Shown here piece by piece: positions 1 to 60,114 of a stretch of DNA of 64,000 nucleotides. Both the position numbers and the translations under genes were made by a program. Every line of letters starts with the position of its first letter. The first letter of the stretch is position 1. Source of the stretch: Escherichia coli (lineage in GTDB: Bacteria > Pseudomonadota > Gammaproteobacteria > Enterobacterales > Enterobacteriaceae). The stretch lies in assembly GCF_024298765.1 (NCBI RefSeq), contig NZ_CP101210.1; one strand, written 5' to 3'. The notes beneath the pieces were generated by a model. That model worked only from the letters and a program-made list of their open reading frames with translations, was not told where the DNA came from and did not search any database.

Positions 1-669
1 GCTATATGCCAGCGCCTGACACAATGTTTCACGAGCCTGCCAGATATCTCCCTGAAACAACGCCAGTGCCGCACCAGGCGAACCGGCGCTTAAGCGCAAT
101 GCGGCAAGTAATGCATCCTGTGACATTGTCACTTCGCGTGAAAGCCAGGTCACGGCGTACTGTTCCGGTGGCGGCGCAAGGTAATGTAACCGACAACGAC
201 TACGTAATGTTGCCAGTAAACGTTCTGGCTCGCGGGTAGCAAGGAAAAACCACGTTTCTGCTGGTGGCTCTTCAAGCGTTTTCAGCAATGCGTTAGCCGC
301 GGCGTCGGTTAGTAAGGCAGCATCGGTTACCCAGACAACTTTCGCACCACCTAAGCGTGCGTGCTCATTCAGCTTTTCGGTGACCTCACGTACCGCATCA
401 ATGCCCAGCGTATTTTTCCCTTTTTCGGGAGCCAGGGTGTAGTAATCGGGATGCGTGCCAGCCTGCATCAACTGACATCCACGACAGTGACCGCAACTTT
501 TGTGGCCCTGCGGTTGTTGGCAGAGTAAATAACGGCTCAGGGCGTAGATTAAAGCATCATCGCCCATGCCCGGTAACGCCTGAATGAGCAGCGCATGGTG
601 ACCTCTTCCGGCCTGATAGCTGGCTACCAGTTTTTCGAAATCAGGTCGTAACCATGGATACCATCTCAT
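1..669 (-). CDS. holB: DNA polymerase III delta' subunit, N-terminal ~223 codons; 3' end runs off the window start
   Basis: Reverse translation from 669 reads [14 protein letters not shown]...; the ATG overlaps the tmk stop (ATGA); synteny with tmk. Confidence 0.85.
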
Positions 670-1307
670 GCGTCCAACTCCTTCACCCAGTTGGTCACGG
701 TAGTGCGGATTGCATCCATCACAGCCTCCAGCGGCTGGGTGGCATCAATGGTATGAATGCTTTTATCTTGTGCTGCCAGTTCCAGATAGCGGGCGCGGGT
801 GCGATTAAAAAAATCGAAAGACTCTTGCTCAATACGATCCAGCTCGCCGCGTGCACGCGCGCGTTTTAAGCCAACTTCCGGGGTAACATCGAGATAGAGC
901 GTTAAGTCGGGGCGAAAATCCCCAAGAACAGCATCACGCAGTGTTGCCAGCATATGTTGGTCAATACCACGTCCGCCGCCCTGATACGCCTGAGTGGAGA
1001 GATCGTGGCGATCGCCAATCACCCAGGTGCCGTTAGCCAGCGCAGGTTTGATGACCGTTTCTACCAGTTGAACGCGCGCGGCATAAAACATCAGAACTTC
1101 GGCTTTATCGGTAATGACTTCATCGCCTACCGATTTGATATCCAGCACCAGGCTTCTTAACTTTTCGGCAAGTTGCGTACCGCCAGGTTCCCGAGTGAAA
1201 ACCATGTCGCGGATACCCAGTTGCTCGAGCGTCTCAACCACCACGTTACGCGCGGTAGTTTTGCCTGCGCCTTCCAGCCCCTCAATGACGATATACTTAC
1301 TGCGCAT
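666..1307 (-). CDS. tmk: thymidylate kinase
   Basis: 213-aa ORF with P-loop GLEGAGKTT; conserved position between holB and mltG. Confidence 0.93.
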
Positions 1308-2319
1308 TTTTTTCCTTAAGCACTTTCAGATAATCCTGCACAGACTTGTTATGACTGGCAAGATTGGTATTAAACGTGTGACCACCTTTACCATCGGCCA
1401 CAAAATAGAGATACGGCGTTTTTGCCGGATGCGCAGCAGCCTTCAGCGAATCCGCCCCCGGCGTCGCTATCGCACCTGGCGGCAAACCGGTAATGGTATA
1501 GGTGTTATACGCTGTCGGCGTTTCCAGGTCTGCACGAGAAAGTTTGCCATTATAACGCTCTCCCATCCCGTAAATCACGGTTGGGTCGGTCTGCAGGCGC
1601 ATACCAATGCGTAAACGGTTGATAAATACCGAGGCAACCTGATCGCGTTCGCTGGAAACGGCGGTTTCTTTTTCGATAATTGATGCCATCGTCACCAACT
1701 GGTTTTTATCTTTATAAGGCAGACCGTCCGCACGCCCTTCCCAGGCGCTATCGACCGCTTTCACCATTTTCTTGTGCGCTCGCTTGAGTAACGCGACATC
1801 GGTGGTATTGGCGGTATACATCCAGGTGTCTGGCCAGAACCAACCTTCAATCCACTCCGGGTTTTCCAGTTCAAGTGCCTGCGCTACGGTGGCGTACTTA
1901 TCGTCGCTCAGCGTGTGCTTGATATAGGGGGCCTCACGCAATTGCTTGAGGTAATCGCTCAGACGCATCCCTTCTACCAGTCGCAGAGGGAACTGTGCTT
2001 CTTTACCGCTTTCCAGCAATTTCAGCATCTCGCGCACGGTCATCTGCGGTGTAAAGCGGTAAGTCCCGGCTTTAAAGTGAGAAAGATCCGGTTCGATACG
2101 CAGCAGCCATTGGAAAACCCGTGGGCGATTGATGATCTTATCGGCATAAAGCTGTTCACCGAGCGCCAGACGTCCGGTCCCTGGCTTCAGGGTAAATATC
2201 GTCTCTTCTTTGATAAGTAATTTGCTGTCGGCAAGATGGCGAACCTTCCAGACGCCCACACCAGCGGCGATACCCAGTACCACCAGCAATAACAAGATAA
2301 TCAATAACACTTTTTTCAT
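1297..2319 (-). CDS. mltG: endolytic murein transglycosylase (YceG/MltG)
   Basis: 340-aa ORF with N-terminal TM segment; synteny pabC-mltG-tmk. Confidence 0.9.
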
Positions 2320-2321
2320 GA

Positions 2322-3131
2322 CTAATTCGGGCGCTCACAAAGTGGGGCTAAATATTCATATAACGTTGCTGACGAAAAGGAGACATCGCCACAGGCACGT
2401 ACGGGCATCACTGGCATTAACGCATTACAAATAACCATCTCATCTGCCTGCAACGCCTCCTCCAGCGAGGCTTGCACTTCGACAAGCTGATAAGAGGATT
2501 GTGCCAGCAAACGGATACAGAATTGTCGCATAATGCCGTTAACACCTGCCTGATCCAGTCGCGGCGTATAAACTACGTTGCCCTTCCGCCAGAACAAATT
2601 AGCCGCACAGCATTCCGTAACCCACCCTTCGCTGTCAAGGACCAGCGCCTCATCAGCGTTTGTCTGCTCAAGATGAGAGCGGATCAATACTTGCTCAAGC
2701 CGATTAAGATGTTTAATACCTGCAAGATGAGGATTGCGCCCCAGCCGCACCGGGCTTAGCGCCAACGTCATCCCCTCGTTACGCAAACGGTCGTAATGTG
2801 CGGGATAAACCGTAACGGAGAGAATCCGCGTTGCCGGTCCGCTGTTCAATGTGCTGTATCCTCGCCCGCCACTACCGCGACTGATCACCACTTTCAGCAC
2901 ACCATTTTGCTGTTCTGCTGCCAGCGTTTTCATCTCTAGTTCAAGCTGAGGCCAGAAGTCACAGGAAATCATCAACCGCTGACAAGCATCCTGTAGTCGC
3001 TGGATATGCGCCGATAACAAACTGACTTTACCGTCGATAACTCTGGCGGTGGTAAAACAACCATCACCAAACTGCGTTGCCCGATCGCTTACTGCCAGCG
3101 ATTCCTGCTTATGACCGTTAATTAAGAACAT
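2322..3131 (-). CDS. pabC: aminodeoxychorismate lyase
   Basis: 269-aa ORF starting [28 protein letters not shown]; synteny. Confidence 0.9.
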
Positions 3132-3199
3132 ACCGGCTCCTTATCAGAGAATTGTTAGTGTGGCAGCATGTTCACTACGGAACAAGTCGGAATAAAAGC

Positions 3200-3905
3200 T
3201 AATAAATATCCTCCGGCATAGCCGGAGGTTTTTCAAATGCGCCTATAAGGCTCTCTTACCAGCCGCGCCCTAACAGGCGCACACGATCTGACATTTGCAT
3301 CCAACTTCGTTACTTACGGCCCGTAAACGGGCTGCCCGGATAGGGAATCGATAACTGCTCTCCCATTTTATCCTCTTCAAGCTGGTGCTTTATGTAATCC
3401 TGTATCTTCGCCGTGTTCTTACCCACCGTATCGACGTAGTACCCTCTGCACCAGAACTCTCTGTTCCTGTATTTGAATTTCAAATCACCAAACTGCTCGT
3501 AAAGCATCAGACTGCTTTTCCCTTTCAGATATCCCATAAAGCCGGATACACTCATTTTGGGCGGGATCTCCACAAGCATATGGATATGATCTGCACAGCA
3601 TTCAGCTTCAAGAATCCGTACGCTTTTCCACTCACACAGCTTTCTCAAAATACTGCCTATTGCTCTACGCTTCTCTCTGTAGAACACTTGTCTTCGGTAT
3701 TTTGGCGCAAAAACTATGTGATATTTACAGTTCCATCGGGTGTGCGCTAAGCTCTTTTCGTTCCCCATTGGGACCCCCTTTTGATTTCTTGTTTGACACT
3801 TGCAGTTGCCAGACCGCAAGGTGTTTTAACAAATCAAAAGGGGTTTTAATAACTGGCTCAAAGCTGAAAGCTTTCCGGAACCCCCAGCCTAGCTGGGGGT
3901 TTTCT
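3200..3905 (-). mobile_element. IS200-family insertion sequence (~0.7 kb); ends approximate
   Basis: Single Y1/HuH transposase gene plus a perfect hairpin CCCCCAGC-ctag-GCTGGGGG (~3871-3889) upstream of tnpA, as in IS200; sits in what should be a short pabC-fabF spacer. Confidence 0.75.
3310..3768 (-). CDS. tnpA: IS200 transposase TnpA (IS200/IS605 family, Y1 HuH)
   Basis: 152 aa from MGNEKSLAHTRWNCKYHIVFAPKYRR, with HuH motif ADHIHMLV and a catalytic Tyr region; track ORF trimmed to the internal Met. Confidence 0.9.
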   Translation of the reverse strand: MGNEKSLAHTRWNCKYHIVFAPKYRRQVFYREKRRAIGSILRKLCEWKSVRILEAECCADHIHMLVEIPPKMSVSGFMGYLKGKSSLMLYEQFGDLKFKYRNREFWCRGYYVDTVGKNTAKIQDYIKHQLEEDKMGEQLSIPYPGSPFTGRK

Positions 3906-3914
3906 GTGCACAAG

Positions 3915-3940
3915 AAAAAAGGCCCGCAAGCGGACCTTTT
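3915..3940 (-). terminator. Rho-independent terminator downstream of fabF
   Basis: GC hairpin GGCCCGCAAGCGGACC flanked by an A-run and a T-run, just 3' of the fabF stop. Confidence 0.6.
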
Positions 3941-3961
3941 ATAAGGGTGGGAAATGACAAC

Positions 3962-5233
<1,272 letters not shown>

Positions 5234-42468: not shown

Positions 42469-42654
42469 ATGTCACCCTGTGAAAATGACACCCCTATAAA
42501 CTGGAAACGAAACCTGATCGTCGCCTGGCTAGGCTGTTTTCTTACCGGTGCCGCCTTCAGCCTGGTAATGCCCTTCTTACCCCTCTACGTTGAGCAGCTT
42601 GGCGTTACCGGCCACTCCGCCCTGAATATGTGGTCCGGTATTGTCTTCAGTATA
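42469..42654 (+). pseudogene. mdtG: mdtG 5' fragment (codons 1-62), truncated by the insertion
   Basis: [62 protein letters not shown], then out-of-context MGP-stop; the rest of the MFS protein resumes at ~46958. Confidence 0.85.
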
Positions 42655-42689
42655 ATGGGTCCCTAAACACATCATTTTAGGTATTGAAT

Positions 42690-44219
42690 ATGAGACGGGC
42701 AATCAGCTACATCAGATTTTCAAGTGAACGACAACTAAAAGGGGACTCTGTACGCAGACAATCTAAGCTGGTCACTGACTGGCTTGATAAGAACCCTGAG
42801 TTTTACTTGGATTCATCCTTGAGCTTTAAAGATTTGGGGAAAAGTGCTTTTAGTGGTAAGCACTTGAAAGGTGGCTTAGGTGACTTTTTAACCGCTATCG
42901 AGAAAGGGCTTGTTAAAGCTGGTGATACACTACTAATCGAGAGTTTAGACCGTCTCTCACGTCAGGATATTGATATTGCTTCTGAGCTATTACGTCGTAT
43001 CTTAAGGGCTGGTGTAGATATAGTCACACTGAGCGATGGTGAACATTACACACGAGAAAGTTTAAAAGACCCGTTATCCCTGATTAAAAGCATTCTGATA
43101 ATGCAGCGGGCGCATGAGGAAAGTCTGAGGAAGTCTGAGCGTGTCCAAGCTGCATGGAACCGTAAAAAAGAACTCATCTCCGAAGGTATCAAGGTATCTA
43201 GGCGTTGTCCTGCATGGTTAAGGCTGAATGATGACCGTCGAACATTCACTATCATCCCCGATAAAGTGGAAGTTGTTAAACGAGCATTTGACCTGAGATT
43301 ACAGGGTTTAAGCTTTTGGGCTATCACCAGAACTTTAAACGATGAAGGCCACTTGTCATTGAATCAATACACACCTAAACAAAAGGGATGGTCTGATACT
43401 GCTGTAAAGAAACTACTCAGAAATCGTGCTGTGATTGGATGTTTCACACCTGCTGGACGTGAAGAAGTTCAGGGTTACTACCCCGCAATAATCAGTGAGT
43501 CACTATTCTATCGAGTACAGCAACTGAACACAGGGCAATATGGTAGGGCTTCTGTATCAAGTAATCCGCTATCAGTCAACTTGTTCAGGGGTATCATCAA
43601 ATGTTCTGAGTGTGGGGCTACTATTGTTCTTGGTGGATATGCCTTAAAACGTTTTGGGATGTACAGATGCCCTAATCGTTCAGCTAACAGGTGTAGTGCA
43701 AAGGCTATCAGTCGTAAGCAAACGGATACAACTATCCTTTACATGCTCGCATTATGCGACCGTTTTGAAACTGAAAATACTGACACTATTGATAGCCTTA
43801 AATTACAGCGTGAAGATTTGCAGCGTAAAATCTCAAAAATGGCAGAACTCGCTATTGAACTCGATGACATGACAATTATCACAGAGAAATTACGTGATAT
43901 GAAGAATGCGCTATCAAAACTCAATCATGATATCGAAGAGGAAACAAAGCGGATAAAGGCCATCACAACTGGAAGCCTCAAAGATATTGACAGGACAACA
44001 AAGGAAGGGATGATAGAGACACAGCTACTTATCAAGGGCGTACTCAAAGAAATAGTTATAGATGCCGCTAAACGTCGCTGTAAAGTGACTTTTCACAACG
44101 GTAAGGTAATTGACCTACCTATAACAGAAAACCCCTCAGAGGACGTTACAGAGGCCATACAGTCGCTTTCTGAAGTCACTGAGAGGGGTTTAATAGATGT
44201 TGATGTAGTAGCGATTTAG
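42690..44219 (+). CDS. large serine recombinase (integrase)
   Basis: 509 aa from ATG 42690 (track begins 6 nt earlier at TTG): N-terminal resolvase domain with catalytic YIRFSSERQ, recombinase domain, Cys-rich zinc ribbon CSECG...CPNRSANRC, C-terminal coiled coil. Confidence 0.88.
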   Translation: MRRAISYIRFSSERQLKGDSVRRQSKLVTDWLDKNPEFYLDSSLSFKDLGKSAFSGKHLKGGLGDFLTAIEKGLVKAGDTLLIESLDRLSRQDIDIASELLRRILRAGVDIVTLSDGEHYTRESLKDPLSLIKSILIMQRAHEESLRKSERVQAAWNRKKELISEGIKVSRRCPAWLRLNDDRRTFTIIPDKVEVVKRAFDLRLQGLSFWAITRTLNDEGHLSLNQYTPKQKGWSDTAVKKLLRNRAVIGCFTPAGREEVQGYYPAIISESLFYRVQQLNTGQYGRASVSSNPLSVNLFRGIIKCSECGATIVLGGYALKRFGMYRCPNRSANRCSAKAISRKQTDTTILYMLALCDRFETENTDTIDSLKLQREDLQRKISKMAELAIELDDMTIITEKLRDMKNALSKLNHDIEEETKRIKAITTGSLKDIDRTTKEGMIETQLLIKGVLKEIVIDAAKRRCKVTFHNGKVIDLPITENPSEDVTEAIQSLSEVTERGLIDVDVVAI

Positions 44220-45380
44220 TATCTCTTATTAGGATTCACTGAGTACTTTTTAAGCTTTGAAGCTACCCGACCAGCGTTACTGTTAGCATTGGTGAGGTTG
44301 GTTTTTTCAGCTTCTTCACAAAAAAGCTTCAGAGGTCTTCTTAACCATCCGCTAAGCAGGAGAGAGGGTGGTACATGAGAAAGAACCCTCACTTCTAAAA
44401 AGATTTTTTAGCTATTTTGCTTAAAACCATATCAAAAGATACATTTTATTGATTCAGGTCAAAGACAAAAGCATTGACAAAATGGTAAAATTGTTCACAT
44501 GACCTTACTTAACAGACTTTTTAAGAGCTTTTGAGAAGCTTGTTGAACAGACACTCTTTCTGGAGTGTTGTCTTTTACTTAAGAGGTTTGTTTAGATAAC
44601 TCTCAAGGCATCTCTTAAGAATCACTGTTAAGGTGATACTCTCCCTTCGGGTTATATCGTATCTCTTCTCCCGTTAGACAGTTTTTCCTAGCAACTTCAT
44701 AGTTATCTGTCAAGTGCCTTTGAAGATTCCATCAAGACCTCTGAATCTGACCTGATATAGATGCTGTGAAGGCATATTCTCTAGGTCTGTGTAGCTTACT
44801 TAGTGGGAAGAGAGGGATATAGTGACCATAGGGGAACCCCTCCTGTTAAAAAGACTACTTAGAAGTCTGAGACTTTAGTAAAATCTGTGAATATAGCTTC
44901 TCAGACGCTCTGTAACGCATTCTAAGCGATTTTACCACCTTATTTTAAGGTGGGTGGTACATCCCTATAGGTTACCCTAAAAATGGGGTTAAAACTCGCT
45001 ACAGAGCTTTCTATGAGGCTTGGTAGAGTTGCATAAATTTTACACAACACTTATTCAGCTTCTAAATTTTTTTATAAAAAATCGTAGTAACCCCTCTACA
45101 TTCCCCTTCACCGATAATCTTCAAAAATATCTATCACAGGTCTATACCTGCTAAGTACCCGTCACTACGCCTAAGTGGTCCCCTTTGCAAAATTTTAAAA
45201 TATCTATTGACTTTTTATGTGAACTGTTATAAAGACCGCTCCATCTCTTAGGCATACCGTTATAGCATACTAAAAAGGTATAGCTAACCCCCTGTAAAAA
45301 CCATACCGATTAGCCTTGTAAAACACTTTATCGGTACATTATACTCAACTCATCAAATGAGTAAGGCAAATGAGTATATT

Positions 45381-45926
45381 ATGGCTAACATTGGTTATAT
45401 CCGAGTTTCATCAATCCAGCAGATTACAGACCGTCAACTTGAAGGGGTCGTACTGGATAAGATATTTACTGATAAAGCATCTGGGAAGAATACAGACCGT
45501 CCACAACTAAAGGCTATGCTCGATTATGTTCGTGAAGGTGATGTTATCCATGTACACGACTTGTCACGTTTAGGGCGCTCTACCGTGGATGTATTAACGC
45601 TGGTGGATAAACTTTCACAGAAAGGTATCAAGGTTCACTTTCACAAAGAAGGTCTGATAACTGGTGACGATAACCCCACGTCTAAGATGATTCTCACAAT
45701 CTTTTCAGCAGTGGCTGAAGCTGAACGTAAAATGATGCTTGAGCGTCAACGAGAAGGCTATGAAGCTGCTAAAGCTGCTGGTCGTGTAGTTGGAAGGGGT
45801 AACGGTAAAGCGGTTGACAGAGAAGGTATTAAAGCTGCTCTTGCTGCTGGTGGTTCAATCGCTAAAGTAGCCGCTCAATTCAACGTTGCCAAGTCAACTG
45901 TACAGCGTATTAAAGCTGAAGATTAA
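45381..45926 (+). CDS. small serine recombinase, resolvase/invertase family
   Basis: ~181 aa from MANIGYIRVSS (catalytic Ser), IFTDKASG, LSRLGRS, SAVAEAERK, C-terminal HTH; the track ORF starts 8 codons earlier at 45357. Confidence 0.85.
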   Translation: MANIGYIRVSSIQQITDRQLEGVVLDKIFTDKASGKNTDRPQLKAMLDYVREGDVIHVHDLSRLGRSTVDVLTLVDKLSQKGIKVHFHKEGLITGDDNPTSKMILTIFSAVAEAERKMMLERQREGYEAAKAAGRVVGRGNGKAVDREGIKAALAAGGSIAKVAAQFNVAKSTVQRIKAED

Positions 45927-45939
45927 GTCAGGAAATACA

Positions 45940-46623
45940 TTAGATTTTTCTTCCAAATAAACTTGGGAGATTCTTACGGTTTCTTGCTTGCATCATTATT
46001 TCTGGGCTAACAAGTTTTTTTAATTCGCTTCTGTACTCATCAATAGAACACTCATCCGCAACAAGTTTTGAAATCAGGTCTTCAATAGACATAACATCTT
46101 GTTGCAGGAAATCAAGTTCACGAGACAAGTGCTTTTTTTGATTCTCTAACTTTCCTATCTCAGCATTTAAGTTATCTACATCTGTCGCCAATTTCTCTGC
46201 CTGAGATTTCAAATTACTTGTATCTTCTTTTTCTCTTTCGATAAGGTTTTTTTGTTTCTCAATCTTCAACTTTGACGTCAGTCTAGCTGACTCTTCAAGA
46301 TTTTCAGCTTCTACTTTTTGTCTTGCTCGCCATGCGGTTGCCTTGATTTGAAGTAGTGTTACAAGGTTGCTGAAGTAAGGGAAAAAGGTCGCCAAAATGA
46401 ACCCTAGCCCTACGGGATAGCATAATGTTTTTAGATAGAAGTCTTCCGTCGATGTGATTTGTTGAATACGAGTAACAACCGAAGCCTCACTAAGACACAT
46501 GATAGCAATGCTTTTCCAGTTAAATCCCACCCATGACAAAATGATGTAGCCCCATAAAGGGTTAGCTACTCGTTCCTTCAACGCCTGCTTAACTGATTCC
46601 GTGATACTTTCTTCACTACTCAC
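45940..46623 (-). CDS. hypothetical membrane-anchored coiled-coil protein (227 aa)
   Basis: Two N-terminal hydrophobic helices (PLWGYIILSWVGFNW..., VGLGFILATFFPYFSNLVTLL), then ~120 aa of charged heptad-like sequence; no family recognised. Confidence 0.65.
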   Translation of the reverse strand: MSSEESITESVKQALKERVANPLWGYIILSWVGFNWKSIAIMCLSEASVVTRIQQITSTEDFYLKTLCYPVGLGFILATFFPYFSNLVTLLQIKATAWRARQKVEAENLEESARLTSKLKIEKQKNLIEREKEDTSNLKSQAEKLATDVDNLNAEIGKLENQKKHLSRELDFLQQDVMSIEDLISKLVADECSIDEYRSELKKLVSPEIMMQARNRKNLPSLFGRKI

Positions 46624-46957
46624 AATTACTGCTCCATAGAAAACTCTGGTTTGAGAAATTTTAATGCGAATCCAATCAGTTAGATAGACCTGTAAATAGC
46701 AATTTTATAGAAGTCGAGAGAGGGATGACTAACACCCTGCATAGTTTCCTGAAAAGAGACTTCGCATATTATCTATATATTTCAATAAGTTATGCTAAAA
46801 AGGAACTATACCAATACTGCATAGATTCTGCGTAAAACTGCTTGGATACTTGGAAATCCACCATTAAATTGCATAGTCATTCACCTGATAAAGCCTGTTA
46901 TTAACAGGTGATAGGATTCGGATGTTCTCATAGTGTATTTAGGGAATTAATATCAGC

Positions 46958-48001
46958 ATTACATTTTTATTTTCGGCCATCGCCTCACCGTTTTGGGGTG
47001 GACTCGCCGACCGTAAAGGCCGAAAACTCATGCTATTACGCTCTGCCCTCGGCATGGGCATCGTGATGGTGTTGATGGGACTGGCACAAAATATCTGGCA
47101 GTTTTTGATCCTGCGGGCGCTTCTTGGGTTACTTGGCGGATTTGTCCCCAACGCTAATGCTCTTATCGCCACACAAGTACCGCGTAATAAAAGCGGCTGG
47201 GCGCTGGGTACGCTCTCCACAGGCGGCGTTAGTGGTGCGTTGCTCGGCCCAATGGCTGGCGGCCTGCTCGCCGATAGCTACGGCTTACGTCCGGTATTCT
47301 TTATTACCGCCAGTGTGCTCATACTCTGCTTTTTCGTCACCCTGTTCTGCATCAGAGAAAAATTCCAGCCGGTCAGCAAAAAAGAGATGCTGCACATGCG
47401 GGAAGTGGTGACATCACTTAAAAACCCGAAACTGGTACTCAGCCTGTTTGTCACCACGTTAATCATCCAGGTGGCGACAGGCTCAATTGCCCCCATTCTG
47501 ACGCTGTATGTCCGCGAACTGGCGGGTAACGTCAGTAACGTCGCCTTTATCAGTGGCATGATCGCCTCGGTGCCAGGCGTGGCGGCTCTGCTAAGCGCAC
47601 CACGACTCGGCAAACTTGGCGATCGAATCGGACCCGAAAAGATCCTGATTACAGCGCTGATCTTTTCTGTACTGCTGTTGATCCCAATGTCTTACGTTCA
47701 GACGCCATTGCAACTTGGGATTTTACGTTTTTTGCTCGGTGCCGCCGATGGTGCACTACTCCCCGCCGTACAGACACTGTTGGTTTACAACTCGAGCAAC
47801 CAGATCGCCGGGCGTATCTTCAGCTATAACCAATCGTTTCGTGATATTGGCAACGTTACCGGACCATTGATGGGAGCAGCGATTTCAGCGAACTACGGTT
47901 TCAGAGCGGTATTTCTCGTCACCGCTGGCGTCGTGTTATTCAACGCAGTCTATTCATGGAACAGTCTACGTCGTCGTCGAATACCCCAGGTATCGAACTG
48001 A
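46958..48001 (+). pseudogene. mdtG: mdtG 3' fragment (codons ~63-408), separated from its start
   Basis: Frame resumes ...[35 protein letters not shown]... to the native stop; the track shows only the internal-Met ORF 47030-48001. Confidence 0.85.
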
Positions 48002-48885: not shown

Positions 48886-53040
<4,155 letters not shown>

Positions 53041-57860: not shown

Positions 57861-58316
57861 TTAACGTTGTGTCACGCGAATAGCCATTTGCGACTGTCTC
57901 TGCACTACAATTGCCGTTTTTTGAGTACCATACTGTGTAATATTTGCTTTATTACCCGAACCTTTCTGGATAATCATCGCAGTATTACCATAAGCACCTT
58001 GCGAAATACTGGCATCGTTGGCACTGCCCGCCTGATCAATATATGCAAGGTTATAATCTCCTGTCTGGTCAATCTTTGCCCGGTTGCTACTACCTTCTTG
58101 CGCAACAACCGCCAAAAGTTTTGAGCCTCCCTGCCGTAACTGAGCACTATTATTAGTCCCAGCTTGACCAATTATGGCTGCCTGATTAAATGAAGACTTA
58201 CTCAATTCATTTACCGCGAAGTTATATTCTGAATTAGCTAAATCATAACCTGCTGCGGCTGCAATCCCAGGCGCACCCAGTATTGTTAACATCATAAATA
58301 ACAATTTGTTTTTCAT
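57861..58316 (-). CDS. csgB: minor curlin/nucleator
   Basis: 151 aa from MKNKLLFMMLTILGAPGIAAA; track ORF trimmed. Confidence 0.93.
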   Translation of the reverse strand: MKNKLLFMMLTILGAPGIAAAAGYDLANSEYNFAVNELSKSSFNQAAIIGQAGTNNSAQLRQGGSKLLAVVAQEGSSNRAKIDQTGDYNLAYIDQAGSANDASISQGAYGNTAMIIQKGSGNKANITQYGTQKTAIVVQRQSQMAIRVTQR

Positions 58317-59069
58317 GTTGTCACCCTGGACCTGGTCGTACATTTAAGAAATTAAATCATTTCAACTTGGTTGTTAACGCAACCTGTATTTTGTTAACGC
58401 TGCGTTACGATGGAAAGTATGTCTGCGGAAATATTTTTAATAACTCACCCGCGCGTTGTATTTTTCTTTTTTTGTTCATACCAAAGTATTAAAACTCACG
58501 TAAATACGCTGTTATCTACGCAAAAAATATTTTGTTTTCTTTTAAATCTCCGTTTTCCGCTATCAAAAATCACCAGACAATCATTCTTCTTGCCCGTCGC
58601 TGATTGCTGCGATATGTCTTGCGCACAAGCCGTGACAAACCTCGTCTTTTTGCAGTAAAAAATTGTCCACGGAGGTGTGGAGAAAAAACAAGAACGTTTT
58701 ACATGACGAAAGGACTACACCGAAATATTTTTTATATGCATTATTAGTAAGTTAGCACCATTTGTATGATTTTTTAAAATTGTGCAATAAAAACCAAATG
58801 TACAACTTTTCTATCATTTCTAAACTTAATAAAACCTTAAGATTAACATTTTAATATAACGAGTTACATTTAGTTACATGTTTAACACTTGATTTAAGAT
58901 TTGTAATGGCTAGATTGAAATCAGATGTAATCCATTAGTTTTATATTTTACCCATTTAGGGCTGATTTATTACTACACACAGCAGTGCAACATCTGTCAG
59001 TACTTCTGGTGCTTCTATTTTAGAGGCAGCTGTCAGGTGTGCGATCAATAAAAAAAGCGGGGTTTCATC
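58317..59069. promoter_or_regulatory. csgB-csgD divergent intergenic regulatory region
   Basis: ~750-bp AT-rich ORF-poor spacer between the divergent csgBAC and csgDEFG operons; a known regulatory hub for curli expression. Confidence 0.8.
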
Positions 59070-59720
<651 letters not shown>

Positions 59721-59724
59721 AGCC

Positions 59725-60114
59725 ATGAAACGTTATTTACGCTGGATTGTGGCGGCAGAATTTCTGTTCGCCGCAGGGAATCTTCACGCCGTTGAGGTAG
59801 AAGTCCCGGGATTGTTAACTGACCATACTGTTTCATCTATTGGCCATGATTTTTACCGAGCCTTTAGTGATAAATGGGAAAGTGACTATACGGGTAACTT
59901 AACGATTAATGAAAGGCCCAGTGCACGATGGGGAAGCTGGATCACAATAACGGTGAATCAGGACGTTATTTTCCAGACTTTTTTATTTCCGTTGAAAAGA
60001 GACTTCGAGAAAACTGTCGTCTTTGCACTGATTCAAACTGAAGAAGCACTAAATCGTCGCCAGATAAACCAAGCGTTATTAAGTACGGGCGATTTGGCGC
60101 ATGATGAATTTTAA
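59725..60114 (+). CDS. csgE: curli secretion specificity factor
   Basis: 129 aa. Confidence 0.93.

Follow-up and report, generated by a model that had tools for sequence, protein, structure and literature searches.

A 4.3 kb element with a large serine recombinase splits the mdtG gene of Escherichia coli

Interruption of mdtG and its consequences for the gene product

The window analysed here, a stretch of 64,000 nucleotides from Escherichia coli contig NZ_CP101210.1 (assembly GCF_024298765.1), contains an mdtG gene interrupted within codon 61 by an insert of 4,306 bp. The interruption, claimed in a preliminary description of this DNA, was confirmed by tblastn and by comparison of the junctions with the intact, 408-aa mdtG of strain 20Ec-P-124 (L004, positions 1570-2796). 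The mdtG 5′ fragment (42469..42650, + strand) comprises codons 1-60 and two nucleotides of codon 61, and matches the intact gene up to ...GTCTTCAG. Where the reference reads ...GTCTTCAGCATTACATTT, the window departs from mdtG after 42650 (i.e. after GTCTTCAG) into TATAATGGGTCCCTAA; mdtG sequence is picked up again at TCAGCATTACATTT from 46953, and the 3′ fragment (46953..48001, + strand, codons 61-408) extends to the stop codon at 48001. The earlier division of the gene into 62 and 346 codons was correct in that the promoter and the initial ~60 codons are parted from the remainder of mdtG, and is amended here as to the break point, which lies within codon 61. The GC content of the insert (~0.39-0.44, compared to ~0.52 in the flanks), together with an unbroken mdtG 3′ part (≥80% query coverage) in 5,415 of 5,426 genomes, shows that the insertion is not a chance feature. 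In all carrier genomes the mdtG 3′ part is annotated as a pseudogene.

The sole sequence common to attL and attR is a 4-bp core, TCAG, located at 42647-42650 in attL and at 46953-46956 in attR, the latter inside the right-end non-coding region of the element (46624..46956). The same core is present in attB, and comparison of the junctions with intact mdtG revealed no target-site duplication at the ends of the insert. When attP is reconstructed, with half-site TTTAGGGAATTAATA adjoining the attR core, an imperfect inverted repeat TTTAGGG...CCCTAAA centred on AG is obtained. Symmetry is best about this dinucleotide (14 of 20 positions, vs 8-9 of 20 for neighbouring centres), and AG is probably the site of crossover. 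A very short common core, no duplication and an inverted repeat in attP are as expected for the att sites of a serine integrase.

On the 5′ side, a hybrid ORF (42469-42666, stop codon at 42664-42666) encodes 65 aa, i.e. 62 native residues followed by Met-Gly-Pro, because the first bases of the element by chance re-encode Ser61-Ile62; tblastn finds residues 1-62 at 100% identity. On the 3′ side, residues 61-408 are encoded with no start codon before Met86 (47030), the first in-frame ATG. The longest ORF of this fragment, Met86-Asn408 (323 aa, 47030-48001), is devoid of the conserved 10-residue loop at residues 75-84. The window therefore does not encode the continuous ~408-aa DHA1-type MFS efflux transporter with a full MFS_1 fold that defines MdtG (YceE). 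Since promoter and ~60 codons are cut off, no replacement coding sequence is supplied by the element and the loop is lacking, full-length MdtG cannot, judging from the sequence, be produced from the split locus, in line with the earlier claim that precise excision would be needed. The strain should be without functional MdtG, with loss of pump activity as the expected outcome.

According to the preliminary description, a second intact mdtG copy elsewhere in the genome would refute the loss of MdtG. None was detected in the window, where tblastn with the joined protein returned the two fragments and weak paralogue matches. In closed genomes with the same insert the mdtG 3′ part is present once, with the exception of strain CT265, in which it is found in two places. 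The extra place is most simply explained by 93 bp of element end within the query, because CT265 has four element-derived places. It is very unlikely that pump activity is kept nonetheless, either through an outward promoter expressing N-terminally truncated MdtG or through assembly of the fragments into a split transporter. The 323-aa ORF is indeed left, and the AT-rich right end of the element could house promoters. However, residues 63-85, including the conserved loop, are in neither product, the promoter scan of 46624-46956 yielded no promoter-like site directed toward mdtG, and a TAG at 46940 precedes the 3′ fragment in frame.

When the two halves are joined in silico at the core (attL x attR), an uninterrupted 1,227-nt, 408-aa MdtG ORF results, and secondary lesions are absent from both halves. 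This upholds the proposal that precise excision would restore mdtG.

Gene content and larger relatives of the element

The element consists of a large serine recombinase (LSR) gene, ~1.1 kb of conserved non-coding DNA, a small serine recombinase gene and a gene for a 227-aa coiled-coil protein. No structural, replication, packaging or transfer gene was found among these three ORFs or by Pfam. The LSR, i.e. the integrase (42690..44219, + strand, 509 aa from ATG, with an alternative TTG start at 42684), features Pfam domains Resolvase (PF00239), Recombinase (PF07508) and Zn_ribbon_recom (PF13408), each above cut-off, and a RFSSERQ catalytic motif. Residues 244-460 in its C-terminal half align to the C-terminal domain of the A118 serine integrase. 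The succession of a resolvase catalytic domain and of recombinase, zinc-ribbon and coiled-coil regions is that of an LSR. The protein is 98.6% identical to the copy in strain A1, with a dN/dS of 0.11 indicative of an intact integrase under purifying selection.

The integrase gene is followed by what is left of the 3′ end of a Dit-like/baseplate gene from Felix O1-like phages (44219..44407, - strand), in which 45 aa are 40% identical to the gp75 C-terminus of phage Andreotti and positions 44224-44250 are 92.6% identical to phage positions 51225-51251. The conserved non-coding core (44316..45356) contains no conserved ORF according to alignments and ORF checks, and has no match in Rfam. A block at 44383-44516 is nearly invariant in alignments of 10 loci, and promoter and terminator scans identified a promoter-like site at 44462-44491 and, after it, a terminator-like hairpin at 44550-44578. 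On both strands, the core folds far better than shuffled sequences (z -5.5 and -4.3). Within it, segment 45045..45204 is homologous to repeat-rich DNA without genes in Felix O1-like genomes; it matches Andreotti 81190-81346, within the gene-free region at 80.7-82.4 kb, and its end (45183-45204) has an exact 22-mer, CTTTGCAAAATTTTAAAATATC, in common with Felix O1-like phage DNA. Just 5′ of the small recombinase gene, a 7-bp perfect inverted repeat TACCGAT...ATCGGTA (45304..45336) is overlapped by a promoter-like TTGTAA-18-TATACT (45316-45345). This stretch differs in loci with another small recombinase type, and represents a candidate res-like binding site.

The small serine recombinase itself (45381..45926, + strand, 181 aa as annotated by PGAP, with an ORF reaching an upstream ATG at 45357) is of the resolvase/invertase type (Pfam Resolvase, 2.8e-37, and HTH_7), and its nearest solved structures are the Tn3 and gamma-delta resolvases and Gin invertase. 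The 227-aa accessory protein (45940..46623, - strand) begins with hydrophobic segments and continues as a long coiled coil. In Pfam, PADLOC and NCBIfam its matches are all to coiled coils and below threshold; in PHROGs it matches families of unknown function. Homologues are found in a mini element at tonB/yciI (34% identity) and in strain GB089, where a large element gives a 95.6% nt match.

Among 5,426 complete genome records of E. coli, at least 21 (~0.4%) have the same mdtG site occupied, 8 of them by mini elements and 13 by large relatives of ~11.6 kb each. The large relatives encode a replication-initiator-like gene, and carry a tape-measure protein (TMP) gene and the following Dit-like/baseplate gene as in the virulent Felix O1-like phages, with 76% aa identity and 519 bp at 94.8% nt identity; these two are their only virion genes. 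Phage matches in the database to the rest of the large element and to the window's non-coding core were confined to Felix O1-like intergenic regions. The window's element has less: the 45-aa relic, ~90 bp at ~75% identity (E 5e-4 to 6e-3) and the 22-mer, with ~160 bp of phage-like intergenic DNA retained. Sequence comparison thus shows links of the element family to Felix O1-like phages that are strong in the large relatives and modest in the window's element.

Given the Dit-like relic at 44219-44407 and the end, at 44315, of homology with the large mdtG element L001, the window's element is best understood as a deletion derivative of this ~11.6-kb E. coli element family, having lost ~7 kb, with the tail-gene block and the replication-initiator-like gene both gone. 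The family, apparently undescribed, is not restricted to mdtG. Of the 5,426 complete genomes, 542 contain its non-coding core, and other family integrases use unrelated sites (yecE, tonB/yciI, near ymdF), so that the choice of target looks element-driven.

Both the window's element and the large relatives combine an integrase of their own with an incomplete set of virion genes, as satellites do, and a satellite-like lifestyle is inferred. As a tentative proposal, in which we place somewhat less than even confidence, the window's element may be a non-autonomous mini member of an undescribed E. coli/E. albertii family parasitising the strictly virulent Felix O1-like myophages, infection triggering excision and thereby restoring mdtG. 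If so, this would be a family that integrates by means of diverse large serine recombinases, often inside genes such as mdtG and yecE, whose members bear divergent copies of phage tape-measure and baseplate-hub genes and share a nearly invariant non-coding core, its phage-like regulatory DNA sensing or exploiting infection.

Mobility of the element and the fate of mdtG

Clues on the mobility of the element were obtained from other carriers. In strain NT1F25, the element differs from that of the window at 1 position across 4.3 kb; the flanks display 49 differences in 3,044 positions on the left and 61 in 5,043 on the right (1.2-1.6%), those closest to the core being 35 bp and 91 bp away from it. 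The element of strain 1428 has 13 differences (0.30%), compared to 1.15% and 1.70% in its flanks, and overall the flank differences of near-identical copies begin 35-157 bp from the junction. Such near-identical elements in diverged mdtG alleles show, at the level of sequence comparison, that integration at this one mdtG site has occurred independently, and the element is to be regarded as having kept, at least until very recently, its capacity for transfer between strains and integration.

These data bear directly on whether the element is what remains of a larger one, decayed and immobile, and mdtG a vertically inherited, fixed pseudogene, which we consider unlikely. The ~7 kb missing relative to the large elements, the retained gene relic, the absence of replication, packaging and transfer genes, additional IS damage in several carriers and the lack of attP junctions in public assemblies would all fit such a history. 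However, vertical inheritance alone is excluded by near-identical copies in mdtG alleles 1.2-1.7% apart, and flank differences so close to the junction are hard to reconcile with homologous import. The intact integrase ORF with its low dN/dS, and mdtG halves free of further lesions, also argue against such a history.

We consider it probable that the insert is a mobile element, a deletion derivative with phage-linked mobilisation, which was inserted by serine-recombinase site-specific recombination with the mdtG knockout as an incidental result. Integration would have taken place between the element's attP and attB within mdtG codons 60-61, and integrase-driven excision would restore mdtG exactly. 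Such excision would constitute a step of element mobilisation, not an efflux-regulating device.

No candidate for a recombination directionality factor was seen among the three ORFs, and no small ORF is conserved in the non-coding core. Such factors do not share a sequence signature, and a source in trans is possible. CcrAB and TnpX are large serine recombinases that excise without a separate directionality factor, and self-excision of the element is thus a further possibility. By analogy with PLE of Vibrio, whose excision requires the ICP1 protein PexA (bioRxiv 10.1101/218164 / PMC6002521), excision may need a helper, and would most likely be set off by infection with a Felix O1-like phage or by a full-length element resident in the same cell. 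Four mini-element carriers have no other family member in their genomes, so that a resident full-length helper is not needed for maintenance.

The preliminary description had further proposed that reversible excision would make mdtG switchable. In the regulatory sense, conditional excision would restore MdtG and be followed by re-integration, as for comK/phi10403S in Listeria and spsM/SPbeta in Bacillus. The uncompensated break in the mdtG coding sequence and its exact repair on excision in silico are compatible with this, as is an intact integrase under purifying selection. Moreover, the integrase gene begins 40 bp past the core, co-oriented with mdtG and with no terminator-like site between, such that the stress-inducible mdtG promoter could read into it. 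Several independent integrations at the same in-gene position are also what Mageeney et al. (2020, PMC7192596) took to define a candidate for regulated gene integrity, and this is the situation observed at mdtG. We nevertheless find a switch quite unlikely, and little supports it. The site is occupied in only ~0.4% of genome records; the integrase gene is broken by ISEc52, IS100 or ISEc12 in at least four carriers (strains 104, E8, E166 and ECOL-18-VL-LA-PA-Ryan-0026), which is unexpected for a switch kept by selection; and no directionality factor is visible. The use of unrelated sites by family integrases and the phage-associated lifestyle suggested by the relatives point in the same direction. 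The excised attP junction was not found in IMG/VR or JGI metagenome contigs, a weak argument as only two contigs carry the element, both with attL. Deletion of mdtG in wild-type E. coli has little phenotype, which makes the benefit of switching doubtful. The mdtG knockout looks like an incidental consequence of where the integrase inserts the element rather than a host on/off switch.

Comparison with known systems

Serine integrases are known from gene-interrupting elements such as skin/sigK (SpoIVCA), SPbeta/spsM (SprA-SprB) and the fdxN element (XisF) (PMC7192596, PMC5499854). Like these, the mdtG element is an LSR element within a gene, with no replacement sequence, exact restoration on excision and repeated integrations. 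Unlike them, it has no recognisable directionality factor and no link to a host developmental programme, its occurrence in mdtG is rare (~0.4%), its integrase is often IS-damaged, and its target is a dispensable efflux gene. Site-specific inactivation in a minority of strains is likewise seen at the core-gene prophage sites of E. coli (wrbA, yecE, mlrA, prfC and others; PMC3603311), although mdtG is not listed among these and the element described here, at 4.3 kb, is no prophage and encodes a serine rather than a tyrosine integrase. Among phage-encoded homologues, those closest to the integrase are YbcK-type LSRs from lambdoid phages (DLP12 ybcK), with 37% identity across 99% of its length. 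Identity is low, however, att sites are unrelated, and YbcK sits in lambdoid genomes without being their integrase.

Satellites of virulent phages provide further parallels. The minimalist vibriophage satellites PICMI (PMC10803314) are likewise a few kb in size, with a reduced gene set, no capsid-remodelling genes and an apparent dependence on outside help for transfer, but differ in integrase type, gene set and host clade; mobilisation of PICMI has been demonstrated by experiment, whereas mobilisation of the mdtG element is deduced from population data. PLE of Vibrio cholerae (PMC6002521), the satellite of the virulent myophage ICP1, is unrelated in sequence and does not carry the phage tape-measure and baseplate-hub homologues found in the large E. 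coli relatives. Nevertheless, PLE and the E. coli elements are both chromosomal islands with an LSR and an association with strictly virulent myophages; PLE lacks a directionality factor of its own, and none is recognisable in the mdtG element. The large E. coli relatives, as distinct from the window's copy with no replication gene, resemble PLE in possessing their own replication-initiator-like gene.

The interrupted mdtG locus

The gene order of the region, yceI-trhO-lpxL-mdtG-msyB-yceK-mdoH, is that of E. coli, with the efflux-pump gene mdtG split by an integrative element of 4,306 bp. Taking the gene of strain 20Ec-P-124 as the intact reference (1,227 nt, 408 aa), the 5′ part is identical to it from position 42469 to GTCTTCAG (42650), where it diverges into TATAATGGGTCCCTAA, and the intact-gene sequence begins again at TCAGCATTACATTT (46953), continuing to 48001. 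The junctions have only TCAG in common (42647-42650 and 46953-46956), target duplication is absent, and the two halves joined in silico form an unbroken 408-aa ORF. The preliminary description was right about the split itself, though not about its position after 62 codons: the DNA break falls within codon 61, and the count of 62 arose because the first bases of the insert re-encode Ser61-Ile62 by chance.

The 5′ ORF of the split gene stops after 65 aa. An in-frame TAG lies just 5′ of the 3′ fragment, in which the earliest ATG corresponds to Met86, so that MdtG residues 63-85, including a 10-residue loop, are lost. A promoter scan found no promoter-like site firing outward from the right end of the insert. 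There is no second mdtG copy in the 64-kb window, and the 3′ part was found once per carrier genome, except in CT265 with two places, the second of which would most simply derive from the element. The split, the 65-aa stop, the Met86 start and the lack of a second copy in the window agree with the earlier claim that the insertion abolishes full-length MdtG, and its production from the split locus appears, on good support, to be precluded. Over-expressed MdtG confers resistance to fosfomycin and deoxycholate, and the annotation note on the protein says likewise. The strain lacks one minor MFS efflux pump, a loss expected to have a modest phenotype at most; as a knockout, the split is an ordinary event of known kind, and what deserves attention is the element, a serine integrase system with its attB in mdtG, along with the family to which it belongs.

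The insert holds three ORFs and one long ORF-free stretch. A large serine recombinase of 509 aa (42690-44219, + strand), hereafter the integrase, has Resolvase, Recombinase and zinc-ribbon domains, and its C-terminal half matches the A118 integrase. It is followed by AT-rich DNA free of ORFs according to an ORF check (44220-45356), a small serine recombinase of the resolvase/invertase type (45381-45926, + strand), and, on the - strand, a gene for a 227-aa protein with a hydrophobic N-terminus and a coiled coil, without family assignment (45940-46623). A role of the latter as a defence system was considered and dropped (PADLOC, NCBIfam and Pfam gave sub-threshold coiled-coil matches only). Elsewhere in the window, the stretch 58001-60000 has a GC content of 0.395, as low as that of the element. 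At 45255-45336, 5′ of the small recombinase gene, a TACCG(A/T)T motif occurs three times, and two of the copies (45304-45310 and 45330-45336) form a perfect 7-bp inverted repeat overlapping a promoter-like site; judged by its sequence, this region resembles a resolvase res site or an operator.

The attachment site in intact mdtG (attB) is GTCTTCAGCATTACAT, and that reconstructed for the excised element (attP) is GGGAATTAATATCAGTATAATGGGTCCC. The latter can be written TTTAGGGAATTAATATC-AG-TATAATGGGTCCCTAAA, an imperfect inverted repeat for which AG is the best centre, with matches at 14/20 positions; the attP of a serine integrase usually has this layout. As an attB for an E. coli serine integrase, mdtG had not been listed before, and an integrase with att sites defined to the base pair is useful for catalogues of these enzymes.

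Mobility of the element and the fate of mdtG

The 4.3-kb element is present in mdtG in eight records representing seven strains. The copy of strain NT1F25 differs from that of the window at 1 position, whereas its flanks differ at 49/3,044 bp on the left and 61/5,043 bp on the right, the nearest differences being 35 and 91 bp away from the core. The copy of strain 1428 is 0.30% different, and its flanks 1.15% and 1.70%. Near-identical elements within diverged flanks rule out vertical descent. Homologous import could have carried the element between mdtG alleles, but this would require, on two occasions, crossovers no more than tens of bases away on either side. Several independent site-specific integrations into mdtG would be the simplest reading of these comparisons, according to which the element still moves or did so recently. 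Its integrase is 98.6% identical to the copy of strain A1, with a dN/dS of 0.11.

The preliminary description had proposed that reversible excision makes mdtG a switchable gene. Precise excision would indeed give back intact mdtG, as the in-silico join indicates. Moreover, the integrase gene starts 40 bp past the core and is co-oriented with mdtG, with no terminator-like site between, so that transcription from the mdtG promoter, which belongs to the MarA/SoxS/Rob regulon, could drive it; a perfect TATAAT directly after the core (42651-42656) also lies upstream of the integrase gene. By the operational test of PMC7192596, mdtG would here count as a “regulated gene integrity candidate”. Nevertheless, control of mdtG by such a switch seems improbable. 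The mdtG site is occupied in about 0.4% of genome records only, no directionality factor is visible in the element, and the integrases of the family aim at unrelated sites. The integrase gene has also been destroyed repeatedly, by ISEc52, IS100 or ISEc12, in strains 104, E8, E166 and ECOL-18-VL-LA-PA-Ryan-0026, where the loss of mdtG is locked in. A weaker point is that IMG/VR and JGI metagenome contigs yielded no attP junction of an excised circle or concatemer, the element occurring there in two contigs only, both with the left junction (attL). The IS interruptions are independent in different strains (e.g. 491-3273 in the strain 104 locus, L020, and 491-3979 in the strain E8 locus, L021). 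In metagenome contig QZLJ01003749.1 (L019, 50-1687), which carries a larger relative of the element integrated in mdtG, the integrase frame is spread over three ORFs, reflecting either decay or sequencing error.

A wider family with a conserved non-coding core

At least 13 further records have an element of about 11.6 kb at exactly the same mdtG attB, e.g. strains A1 (L001) and JNU (L002). These large elements encode the same integrase, a Dit-like/baseplate gene, a tape-measure gene, several small unknown genes, a replication-initiator-like HTH protein and, in some members, a Dam methylase, together with the non-coding region and the small recombinase. The last 100-190 bp or so of the Dit-like gene (3′ end) are still present in the element of the window, which is thus a deletion derivative. 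The gene of the 227-aa protein is not specific to the mini element, given a 95.6% nucleotide match in a large element of strain GB089.

The module of non-coding region and recombinase was found in 542/5,426 genomes, so that the element opens onto a family carried by about 10% of the complete genomes of E. coli. Elsewhere the module is joined to other integrases, with only 32-35% identity to that of the window, at sites near ymdF (L005), between tonB and yciI (L006), inside yecE (L017) and beside lafU (L024). The tonB/yciI copy is likewise “mini” and has the same four parts in the same arrangement. Its three proteins share only 31-34% identity with those of the window, yet its non-coding core shows about 80-95% identity. 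A block of about 134 nt (44383-44516) hardly varies among ten loci (the window, L002, L005, L006 and L012-L017), E. albertii included, in elements that share only about 31-35% identity in their integrases and other proteins. This block has neither an ORF nor an Rfam match, and its conservation suggests an essential site acting in cis, or else an RNA. When one genome per species was searched for an exact 29-mer of the core, a search pattern that is possibly too strict, only E. albertii gave a match. In strain 2013C-4225 (L006, 12407-16402), a relative with another integrase occupies the tonB-yciI intergenic region; in strain MS1494 (L017, 8557-8904), another such relative interrupts yecE, a DUF72 gene and known prophage target, and the small recombinase is absent altogether.

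Other explanations of the core fared less well. An invertible promoter or segment under the small recombinase was rejected, the inverted repeats of the core being short motif copies with no clean flanking pair. Rfam gave no family match for the core, and a promoter-to-terminator unit of about 80 nt, tried as a structured RNA, folded no better than shuffled sequences (z -1.5). Since good folds form on either strand of the 681-nt core, folding cannot separate an RNA from DNA-level repeats; covariation is uninformative, because homologues are either invariant or swapped for unrelated cassettes.

A link to Felix O1-like phages

A protein with about 76% identity to the Dit-like protein of the large elements was found in 253 records of Felix O1-like phages. 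In phage Andreotti (MN850610), its gene (gp75) lies directly 3′ of the tape-measure gene, the same gene order as in the large element. Within this baseplate-region gene, 519 bp are 94.8% identical between the strain A1 element (L001, 22072-22590) and Andreotti (51469-51987), which implies recent recombination between element and phage; the neighbouring tape-measure genes encode proteins that are only 29% identical overall, with better conserved ends. Phage-database matches to the other 7 kb of the large element were limited to an intergenic piece of about 80 bp, with 244 hits; all but one of these were records of enterobacterial phages with a Felix O1-like size, Felixounavirus being named among them. 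Core positions 45113-45204 of the window match only Felix O1-like intergenic DNA (about 75%, E 5e-4 to 6e-3, with an exact 22-mer), and the core is colinear over about 160 bp with a gene-free, repeat-rich phage region of 1.65 kb. TCTTAAC-type motifs are enriched in this phage region and in the element; the element-side enrichment is unconvincing given the AT-rich background and remains a lead.

Felix O1-like phages are strictly virulent. With exchange this recent, the elements would thus meet them during infection, and a satellite-like or phage-parasitic lifestyle is our best inference for the family. The searchable full-text literature gave no account of the element family, a Felix O1-like phage satellite or the use of mdtG for integration; a common family of E. 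coli elements tied to these phages is apparently undescribed. Felix O1-like phages serve in typing and therapy, and if the elements are satellites or anti-phage defence islands, they bear on the host range of phages in E. coli. The proposed analogue is PLE with its phage ICP1, which supplies the directionality factor PexA to PLE (PMC6002521); a second analogue for such a satellite-like lifestyle is the minimalist PICMI (PMC10803314).
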